Source: Alphaproteobacteria bacterium UBA3773 (GTDB lineage Bacteria > Pseudomonadota > Alphaproteobacteria > RF32 > CAG-239). Taken from it: a stretch of DNA of 64,000 nucleotides. The position numbers and the translations under genes are program-made. The stretch covers positions 17,851-81,850 of the forward strand of contig DFFP01000003.1 of assembly GCA_002372275.1 (NCBI GenBank), given 5' to 3'. Position 1 is the stretch's first letter; every line of letters begins with the position of its first letter. Below the pieces are notes generated by a model. That model was not told where the DNA came from and did no database searches. It saw only the letters and a program-made list of their open reading frames with translations. Of the stretch, positions 8,985 to 9,230 are shown one piece after another.

Positions 8985-9230
8985 ATAGCGCATAAAGGCG
9001 ATTCTTCATCTTTGTCATGCCTAAGCATCCCCACTTTCCTGTACCCCTGGAATCGCAGATCGGCGAAGCCAACGTCGTAAGATGCGAGTTAGGGGTCTAA
9101 AAAAAACGTCATCCCCACCTTACCTTGTCATCCCTCGAGGTGCGCGGCGCGTCACCTCGTCAAGGGATCTAACCTTTAATCGCCCGCGCCTTGGCGCATA
9201 AAGGCGATTCTTCATCAGCCTAAGCATCTA
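8985..9230. repeat. Composite copy of the dispersed modular palindromic repeat family. Layout: A-tail, B module, then a full A module.
   Basis: The motif gcgcataaaggcgattcttcatc...cctaagcatc occurs at 8988-9030 and again at 9194-9228. Between them lie a B module (cccctggaatcgcagatcggcgaagccaacgtcgtaagatgcgag...ggggtct...acgtcatcc) and an A module (gtcatccctcgaggtgcgcggcgcgtcacctcgtcaagggatctaacc...aatcgcccgcgccttggcgcataaaggcgattc). Both match the copy at 13421-13589. Confidence 0.75.

Follow-up and report, generated by a model that had tools for sequence, protein, structure and literature searches.

The DNA analysed here, called the window below, is a stretch of 64,000 nucleotides of contig DFFP01000003.1 from Alphaproteobacteria bacterium UBA3773 (RF32 lineage), and it carries five intergenic clusters of short palindromic repeats, numbered r1 to r5 from left to right, among genes that include a giant Cys-rich gene, a leucine-rich repeat (LRR) gene and a small membrane-protein gene. 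The five clusters share modules. The A+B unit, about 90 nt long, is present in four copies (9127-9216, 13421-13510, 27866-27951 and 58720-58807; 77-94% identical to one another, blastn E 1e-18 to 3e-27), module C in two (9041-9107 and 13515-13583; 87% identity, E 3e-18), module D in three (27964-28014, 58816-58866 and 59656-59706) and hairpin E in one within the window (58914-58962). The heptamer GTCATCC is found 12 times in the window as compared to 4.0 +/- 2.0 in shuffled sequence, a count of 12 being reached in none of 100 shuffles, and seven of the 12 sites lie inside the clusters, every one on the + strand. A first-pass annotation made from the sequence alone had placed repeat copies in five intervals, and self-comparison recovered them in all five; its description of intergenic palindromic repeats in many copies, similar to repetitive extragenic palindromes (REPs) or miniature inverted-repeat transposable elements (MITEs), was borne out, while two units with an inverted tag (8918-8955 and 58688-58706) and a small REP (27828-27855) had been missed. 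The repeats belong to the CGTC-tagged REP superfamily and are laid out as mosaic arrays like the intergenic mosaic elements of Neisseria (NIMEs) and the bacterial interspersed mosaic elements (BIMEs). The hairpin that forms the functional unit has an unpaired (C/T)GTC tag and a stem opening A-T, and the GTCATCC junction is the head of this hairpin, i.e., the (C/T)GTC tag plus the A-T start of the stem.

Hairpin A is a 44-nt extended form of this unit with two conserved bulges, and it is the dominant form in the clade. It is composed of a (T)GTC tag, a 6-bp outer helix (ATCCCT/AGGGAT), a 3-nt bulge TC(A/C) and a 7-bp inner helix, after which come a 1-nt T bulge, a 3-bp helix and the loop, with 16 pairs in total. 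Folding of the modules as single strands showed that the inverted repeats quoted in the annotation are real, with hairpin A at -14.6 kcal/mol (z = -5.0) and hairpin E at -10.1 kcal/mol (z = -4.0); the folds of B (z = -1.5) and C (-11.4 kcal/mol, z = -1.9 for the copy in r1) are weaker, and D does not fold (z = -0.9). The alignment used for covariation comprised 31 A-type hairpins, equal to 496 cells over the 16 pairs. GTCAT was invariant in all 31 copies, the base before GTC was T in 20, C in 8 and A in 3 copies (C or T in 28 of 31), and the first and second pairs were A-T in 27 and T-A in 31 copies, respectively. Paired cells amounted to 98.0%, as compared to 85.5% in shuffled alignments and 30-48% when the 3' partners were slid by 1-3 columns. 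Nine of the 16 pairs had changed on both sides, with 52 compensatory cells, and none of 500 shuffles was as high. Our results showed that compensatory substitutions across species keep the fold of hairpin A. Wobble is rare, with four G-T and one C-A among the 496 cells, and this scarcity is at least as compatible with a structure needed on DNA as with one needed on RNA, without being decisive. The hairpin A of the window and the copy at L006 6130, from a related genome, are identical at 43 of 44 nt, the sole difference being a loop base.

Small copies of textbook form are also present on the source contig, namely TGTC-ATTCCGAA-CTTGT-TTCGGAAT-CTA, TGTC-ATCCTGAA-CTTGT-TTCAGGAT-CTT, TGTC-ACCCTGAA-CTTGT-TTCAGGGT-CTT (window 27828) and CGTC-ATTACGA...TCGTAAT-CCA. 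Three of the small REPs share an 8-bp stem and the loop CTTGT, and variants of the copy at 27828 with compensatory stem changes were found at L023 6683 and 7731, in the left flank of the window. The small REPs and hairpin E carry a CGTC or TGTC tag; the A-T stem start is also seen in L023 6641, 6683 and 7731 and in hairpin E, and the copy at 27828 begins AC. The trinucleotide CCA follows hairpin E, the units F of r4 and r5 (AATCCATTCC) and L023 6641, and hairpin A and the REPs with the CTTGT loop end CTN. The palindromes that delimit the modules are ATCCCT...AGGGAT, ATTCCT...AGGAAT, ATTCCGAA...TTCGGAAT and similar.

A k-mer map of all arrays gave a usual module order of A, B, C or D, and then the short tagged unit F. 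Array r1 reads G(inverted)-B'-C-tag-A-B, r2 reads A-B-C-F, r3 reads REP-A-B-D'-F'-H, r4 reads G'(inverted)-A-B-D-F-E and r5 reads D-F-H, and the modules B, C, D, F, G and H (17-90 bp) are combined variously in the eight arrays known from the window and its flanks. The modules had been described as combined in different orders; they are indeed reused, but they are not freely shuffled, because the relative order is largely kept, and r1 corresponds to r2 after circular permutation. GTCAT(C/T) stands at the start of A, E and the short F alone, and the claim that every module begins at or near GTCATCC holds for these three and fails for B, which has no tag, and for C and D, which stop directly before GTCAT. 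The units of the window species are mostly in tandem, with 10 of the 14 tagged units in 82 kb in the same orientation and a few tag-inside pairs, e.g., 58688-58706 with 58720. The intrinsic terminators near the arrays (9230-9270 and about 13625-13660, by reading of the sequence) are distinct from the repeats.

The array r1 starts on the - strand with unit G (8918-8955), a G/C-rich hairpin followed by an inverted tag (...GAGGGTGAC), which lies in opposite orientation and is shared with 58688-58706, L023 7630-7680 and L031. On the + strand, it continues with the degenerate module B' and a tail (GCCTAAGCATC; 8977-9029), a direct repeat of 9194-9228 at 81% identity, and with module C (9041-9107; 87% identical to 13508-13589), a long imperfect hairpin ACCCCT...AGGGGT with a degenerate tag and an A-run at its end, before the next GTCAT. 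An orphan tag GTCATCC with a pyrimidine spacer (9108-9126), hairpin A (9127-9170) and module B (9178-9216; hairpin AATCGCC...GGCGATT, nhmmer E 8e-14) complete the array. All units of r2 are on the + strand: hairpin A (13421-13465), whose A+B is 94% identical to that of r1, modules B (13473-13510) and C (13515-13583), both assigned by sequence comparison and nhmmer, and the short tagged unit F (GTCATCTAAGAGG...; 13584-13619). Array r3, also on the + strand, is composed of the small canonical REP with its 5-nt loop (27828-27855; fold -7.1 kcal/mol, z = -3.4), a hairpin A with a damaged inner helix (27866-27909), module B (27917-27951; nhmmer) and a diverged module D with a short tagged F and the junction piece H (27964-28048), and H overlaps the final codons of the LRR gene, which is on the - strand. 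In r4 a remnant of unit G with an inverted tag (GAGGGTGAC; 58688-58706, - strand) lies 20 bp from hairpin A and faces it. The remaining r4 units are on the + strand, namely hairpin A (58720-58763), which carries a compensatory C-G to T-A change, module B (58771-58807; nhmmer), module D, a decayed tagged unit CGTCAC...AGTCCA, together with unit F (58816-58903; 83% identical to 59649-59748), and hairpin E (58914-58962) with a TGTC tag, the stem ATCCTGA.../...TCAGGAT and a CCA tail; a unit related to hairpin E occurs in L005, L013, L015 and L031. Array r5 is composed of D, F and H (59656-59764, + strand), and is followed at 59765-59809 by a remnant of the 3' end of an LRR-like gene.

The last 17 codons of this remnant match the C-terminus of the LRR protein (28042-28093, - strand), with no open reading frame upstream, and the remnant is either the leftover of a replaced paralogue or a silent C-terminal cassette. 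The similarity between 28026-28093 and 59742-59809 includes the last codons of the LRR gene and the homologous remnant (...NKNTF.I.YR*), and this gene-end part of the likeness assigned to D is a duplicated gene 3' end and not a mobile module. A 13-mer, CCCTTTACCTATA, is present three times (8888-8900, 28035-28047 and 59751-59763); one copy forms the last codons of a YgjP-like gene on the + strand, whose orthologue in L007 has a related coding sequence, and the other two lie at the edges of r3 and r5.

The window was extended by 9.6 kb to its left and 8.9 kb to its right along the 164.6-kb contig ENA ERZ12302850 NODE_54. Three further arrays were found in these 18 kb of flanks, so that the repeats are not confined to the window and eight arrays are known in 82.5 kb. 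The additional arrays are two tandem small REPs (L023 6641-6710), a hairpin A split within its loop by about 190 bp of other units (L023 7584-7880; split copy 7584-7835), and an inverted copy with stems altered in a compensatory way, GTCATTCCTTGACCTG...CAGGTCATCAAGGAATCT (L025 5519-5640). Independent Logan contigs from the same strain in another sample (SRR5322943) begin or stop inside the repeats, as is expected for a multi-copy sequence. A scan with the pattern GTCATCCCTYGARGTGCGC over one genome per species gave 19 loci, 15 of which are in five gut or rumen proteobacterial metagenome-assembled genomes (MAGs), namely RUG13901, MAG-R073, Tb.RUG.243, RGIG5118 and T1900044927, with RUG14252 represented as a sixth; the other four (L003, L004, L016 and L018) were discarded as chance left-arm matches in high-GC genomes. 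With nhmmer profiles only A was common to the species, and B, C, D and E were not found in the related-species loci; the filler modules differ species by species. In the conspecific contig L031, B and D-like and E-like pieces recur. The hairpin patterns gave two matches in the JGI metagenomes, both in high-GC DNA, one of them inside a coding region, and both without other features of the arrays, and no match in viral contigs. Array r2 had no blastn match among plasmids and phages, and a literature search by sequence strings returned unrelated primer matches only.

The canonical element of the relatives is about 150-170 bp long (L007 115-260; fold z = -5.2) and is composed of hairpin A, a small hairpin (GCGAAGCGC or CGGCGAAGCCG), a spacer and an inverted hairpin, which has the architecture of hairpin A with other stems (GTCAT-ACCT-... 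or GTCAT-CGCT-...), the tags facing outward. Such tag-outside (HH) dimers were seen in L005, L006, L007, L010, L013, L015 and L017, and no target duplication was visible around the inverted outer hairpins. The edges of these elements are formed by tandem half-units (left arm plus A-rich spacer, and the mirror image on the right) with a period of 30-35 and 93-100% match; array edges expand through perfect tandem duplications of the half-unit. At the DNA level L006 and MAG-R073 (L007) share about 87% identity, and between L007 and the window the identity is only 65% for DnaB and 54% for YgjP. L006 and L013 are collinear at about 87% DNA identity and have arrays at three shared intergenic sites, with different inner modules and different numbers of half-units. 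Array sites are constant between related species and strains, and module content turns over. At the YgjP locus of MAG-R073 a different gene is present (outer-membrane-protein-like, by reading), followed by an element. In another region of MAG-R073 (L005 7400-7500), tandem 12-14-nt repeats (AAAAAATACCYC-like, about six copies) lie directly downstream of an array.

The strain comparison was made at the giant Cys-rich gene (9289-13296, - strand), which lies between r1 and r2 and encodes a secreted protein of 1335 aa with a signal peptide and 7.1% Cys. The protein had no Pfam match, and only three homologues were found among 5.8 billion proteins, one of them encoded on the ENA contig L031 beside rplO. 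The L15 proteins of the window and L031 are identical over 151 of 151 aa, and the DNA identity is 98% from window 14180 to 13624, a stretch that takes in rplO and its terminator. The homology stops at the array, where the window has A-B-C-F (the full span of r2, 13407-13623) and L031 has a different array of 290 bp with G, E-like and small-REP units in place of this block. Past the array the homology is back at 82% over the promoter and the first ~750 bp of the giant gene, and the rest of the gene has no homology to L031, the proteins being 1335 and 772 aa long with 60% identity over the first ~300 aa only. Homology returns in the downstream array: the two B modules are 98% identical, the A hairpins differ in their inner stem, and the window contains about 150 nt more, a B'-C block. 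The giant gene is hypervariable, having been largely replaced between two conspecific genomes. It is bracketed by direct A+B repeats of 94% identity, and the gene of the 141-aa membrane protein is bracketed by D+F repeats of 83%. The annotation had named three accessory genes as flanked by repeat copies, which is right for these two, but the LRR gene is accompanied by an array at its 3' side alone. Its suggestion of a recombination hotspot was reasonable, since arrays stand at the site of a strain-level gene replacement, in L031 and at this one locus. In the window the ribosomal-protein operon ends after rplO (13624-14144) and the giant gene comes next, in place of secY. In the distant MAG L030 a relative of the giant protein with 28% identity is encoded beside a secY-adk-rpsM-rpsK-rpoA block, and the boundary between rplO and the giant gene may be a long-standing variable site.

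On this evidence we favour, with a probability of roughly 60%, the view that the clusters are non-coding mosaic arrays in which CGTC-tagged REPs are combined with lineage-specific filler modules and which serve as substrates for exchange. The role of the arrays as exchange sites for genes and modules is supported by the block replacement in L031, i.e., in one strain pair, and by the repeats that bracket the genes. The arrays would act as portable recombination substrates, and array-to-array exchange would swap modules together with the adjacent gene. Such exchange might proceed by RecA-type recombination between modules that arrays have in common, or through a structure-specific enzyme that acts on the tagged hairpin once extruded, and the tag would mark the breakpoints. 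A conserved trans-acting protein may read the tag, the CGA/TCG core and the TCA bulge of hairpin A, and the near-invariance of hairpin A across genera points to such a protein. Several observations weigh against this view of the arrays. The enzymatic step is one that we infer, because no recombinase or nuclease was identified. Hairpin A exceeds the published size limits of CGTC REPs (8-9 bp stem, 4-5 nt loop), and most units of the window species are in tandem, an orientation called negligible for CGTC REPs. The strain-level replacement comes from one locus and one genome pair, and for r3, r4 and r5 the other contigs encoding the same proteins either do not differ in context or break off within the repeats. 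Accessory genes are not the only neighbours of arrays, because in the relatives arrays also separate housekeeping genes (a YchF-like and a YbaK-like gene, as read from the translations, and a tRNA). A role at the RNA level, which is compatible with the other readings, is possible too.

A more specific and rather improbable proposal, drawn from sequence conservation, is that hairpin A, with its GTC tag, A-T foot, CGA/TCG core and TCA bulge, would be the site of a dedicated structure-specific recombinase or nuclease in this clade, which would drive array exchange and the cassette-like replacement of secreted or surface genes. The basis is the identity of 43 of 44 nt in hairpin A across genomes whose DnaB proteins are about 65% identical. 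If this were true, the protein would be the missing enzyme for the CGTC-tagged REPs in general. The motifs of RAYT/IS200 (HUH...Y-x3-NP) and IS110 proteins were absent from the six frames of ~331 kb (window, flanks and related loci) when searched with crude regular expressions rather than profiles, and no transposase or integrase was listed in the Pfam tables of the window and 18 kb of flanks outside an uncovered ribosomal-protein stretch at ~11.6-24.9 kb. A C-terminal fragment of a tyrosine recombinase is encoded at L006 1-198, downstream of a radical-SAM gene (HydG/ThiH-like, by reading), where the syntenic L013 has an array. Its homologues are hundreds of partial integrases of ~70-110 aa with few named members from several phyla, which suggests a promiscuous mobile element or a MAG binning artefact, and it was dropped as the array enzyme, since these homologues are widespread and not array-specific.

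The arrays could instead be non-autonomous mobile elements, like the REP doublets forming hairpins (REPINs) or the palindrome-associated transposable elements (PATEs), moved in trans by a Y1-HUH transposase, either a REP-associated tyrosine transposase (RAYT) or an IS200/IS605 TnpA, which would read the hairpin in single-stranded DNA and cut at or beside GTCAT, with new copies inserted beside old ones. Such an origin is unlikely in our judgement, even though the layout resembles that of GTAG REPs, with an unpaired tag at the foot of a bulged hairpin and covarying stems, the relatives have REPIN-like tag-outside dimers, one hairpin A copy is split in its loop by ~190 bp of units (L023 7584-7835), and 10 of 14 tagged units in 82 kb share one orientation. 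The HUH...Y-x3-NP motif was not found in the ~331 kb, nor was PF01797 in Pfam tables covering nearly all of the 82 kb, and a survey found no CGTC REP beside a RAYT or IS200 gene even where the species encode them (PMC3733652). Neither presence or absence of single units nor target duplication was seen, the differences between genomes being block replacements and tandem duplications. A PATE or MITE derived from IS200/IS605 would have left and right subterminal hairpins of like orientation, an insertion point 3' of a fixed tetra- or pentanucleotide and a cognate TnpA; GTCAT stands before every hairpin here, and neither an element with defined ends nor an empty site nor a TnpA was found in the sequence screened. 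A classical MITE was rejected, with no target-site duplication visible and with window copies that lack an inverted partner. Bulged covarying hairpins that flank accessory genes could also recall attC or other tyrosine-recombinase sites, the array-flanked genes being cassettes, and the recombinase fragment of L006 stands where L013 has an array. We regard this as extremely improbable: identity with attC is rejected because the conserved RYYYAAC/GTTRRRY boxes are absent from the alignment as read by eye (ATCTAAC follows hairpin A in two of four window copies and in no relatives), the genes are scattered and do not form a cassette array, with housekeeping genes included in the relatives, the L006 fragment is not array-specific, and the Pfam tables, which take in almost the whole 82 kb, list no integrase or intI.

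It is also doubtful that the hairpins act mainly as RNA, co-transcribed with the genes beside them as 3' untranslated region stabilisers, partial terminators or insulators and conserved by selection for such a role, with shuffling as a by-product. Seven of the eight arrays lie downstream of one or more genes, A and E form stable hairpins, T-rich runs come after the outer hairpins in the relatives, on the tagged strand there are four G-T pairs for one C-A mismatch, and abstracts of earlier studies mention such roles for REPs. On the other hand, wobble makes up 4 of 496 cells, and nearly all changes are full Watson-Crick switches that keep both strands paired. Most neighbouring genes are on the - strand, and the transcripts would therefore carry the complement of the tagged strand, which is not favoured by the few G-T pairs. 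The invariant unpaired tag and the bulges suggest recognition by a protein. A terminator scan flagged module B alone, and weakly, with no A hairpin flagged, and a terminator identity was rejected. The arrays have no Rfam match; only tRNA passed the gathering threshold over the whole window, a permissive E-value on the arrays and two related loci gave nothing else, and the sub-threshold matches fell on terminators or were weak.

Other features were noted in the window and its flanks. About 85 bp, comprising the 3' end of tRNA-Glu and a terminator-like hairpin, are duplicated 250 bp apart (31356-31440 and 31605-31693; 72-92% identity) next to the tRNA-Glu gene (31674-31748, - strand), which looks like the scar of an element integrated at a tRNA gene, and a Logan contig of another strain (L028) starts nearby. 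Just outside the window (L025 4815-4885 and 5008-5124, about 67.7-68.1 kb in window coordinates) the 5' part of tRNA-Thr(GGT) and ~40 bp upstream are duplicated, the partial copy lying ~190 bp upstream of the intact gene and beside array r6, possibly another integration scar. Two paralogous sensor phosphatase genes (dCache-HAMP-SpoIIE; 29365-31248 and 38360-40681) share DNA stretches of 74-89% identity, which explain the repeat families D4, D8 and D12, and a 74-nt repeat of 77% identity occurs between the genes 53020-53790 and 53913-55481 (53799-53872) and overlapping the 3' end of a 979-aa gene at 55657-58596 (55655-55728); both are unrelated to the tagged hairpins. dnaN and a recF-like gene (SMC_N/AAA_23 domains) are located at the left window edge (410-1624 and upstream, L023 8812-9930). 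Negative GC skew extends over the full 64 kb, and the majority of genes, among them the ribosomal operon, are encoded by the - strand. The window is probably part of a single replichore whose leading strand is the - strand.

The REPs have been sorted into GTAG-tagged and CGTC-tagged superfamilies, the latter found mainly in Alphaproteobacteria and taking in dRS3 of Neisseria and RPE-4 and RPE-6 of Rickettsia (Di Nocera, De Gregorio and Rocco 2013, PMC3733652). In the CGTC REPs, the unpaired tag reads CGTC and often TGTC or CCTC, the 8-9-bp stems nearly always open A, T, the loops measure 4-5 nt and the 3-nt tail is near CCA; these REPs mostly form tag-outside dimers with spacers of 20-100 bp, which are often structured; no transposase gene, RAYT included, is associated with them, clusters are rare and tandem dimers negligible, and bulged forms may have been missed by that survey (PMC3733652). 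The repeats described here agree in the unpaired CGTC or TGTC tag, the A-T stem start, the intergenic and multi-copy occurrence in an alphaproteobacterium, and the sub-families set apart by complementary stem changes. The small copies have 8-bp stems and 5-nt loops, the CCA tail is present on hairpin E, the units F and L023 6641, the relatives have HH dimers with structured spacers of 20-100 bp, and no associated transposase was found in the regions searched. They differ in hairpin A, which has 44 nt and 16 pairs in three helices with two bulges and a CTN tail instead of CCA, in hairpin E, which is also outside the limits of 8-9 bp and 4-5 nt, and in the mostly clustered and tandem units of the window species.

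In the NIMEs, 20-bp dRS3 repeats flank more than 100 families of RS modules of 50-150 bp, and the arrays keep their positions, vary in the number and content of modules and lie beside surface-protein genes that are more divergent than average; they have been proposed as sequences on which homologous recombination or a specific recombinase could act, and as of 2007 they were known from Neisseria only (Bentley et al. 2007, PMC1797815). Here too, tagged inverted repeats delimit filler modules of many families, the arrays are syntenic with differing content (L006 and L013 at three sites, the window and L031), the neighbouring gene for a secreted or surface protein diverges between strains (one locus here), and no resident enzyme is known. 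Unlike the NIMEs, the present arrays belong to gut Alphaproteobacteria and not to Betaproteobacteria, are short (100-400 bp), have delimiters related in form to, but distinct from, the 20-bp dRS3 sequence ATTCCCN8GGGAAT, and are seen without a filamentous phage or a Piv/IS110-type gene. A modular build and a shared junction heptamer had been called distinctive, but both are defining features of CGTC REPs (PMC3733652) and NIMEs (PMC1797815). The arrays also resemble the BIMEs of E. coli and the REPINs of Pseudomonas (PMC2817692, PMC3116915) as mosaics of palindromic units and other motifs with inverted doublets, an unpaired tetranucleotide at the hairpin foot, bulged long hairpins and sites between convergent or co-directional genes. 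In contrast to these, the tag is (C/T)GTC and not GTAG (GT[AG]G), and no RAYT was found in the ~331 kb analysed here, as none is reported for CGTC REPs. The BOX elements of Streptococcus pneumoniae are modular (boxA-boxB(n)-boxC), and both BOX and the Correia elements of Neisseria are small, structured and intergenic with defined terminal inverted repeats, the Correia elements having TA target duplications; neither such terminal repeats nor target duplications were seen in our arrays.

The general picture of REP arrays is unchanged by these results, which extend a known design to another lineage. The NIME-type design, with tagged hairpins and filler, fixed sites, fluid content and a hypervariable secreted-protein gene between arrays, is now seen in a gut lineage, and this clade is a reasonable place to seek an enzyme or binding protein for the CGTC-tagged REPs. 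In practice, the arrays break the assemblies of related MAGs and mark loci of strain-level difference in surface proteins. As compared to the known systems, what is new here is the lineage, an uncultured gut or rumen alphaproteobacterium, the long bulged hairpin, and the tandem orientation of most units.

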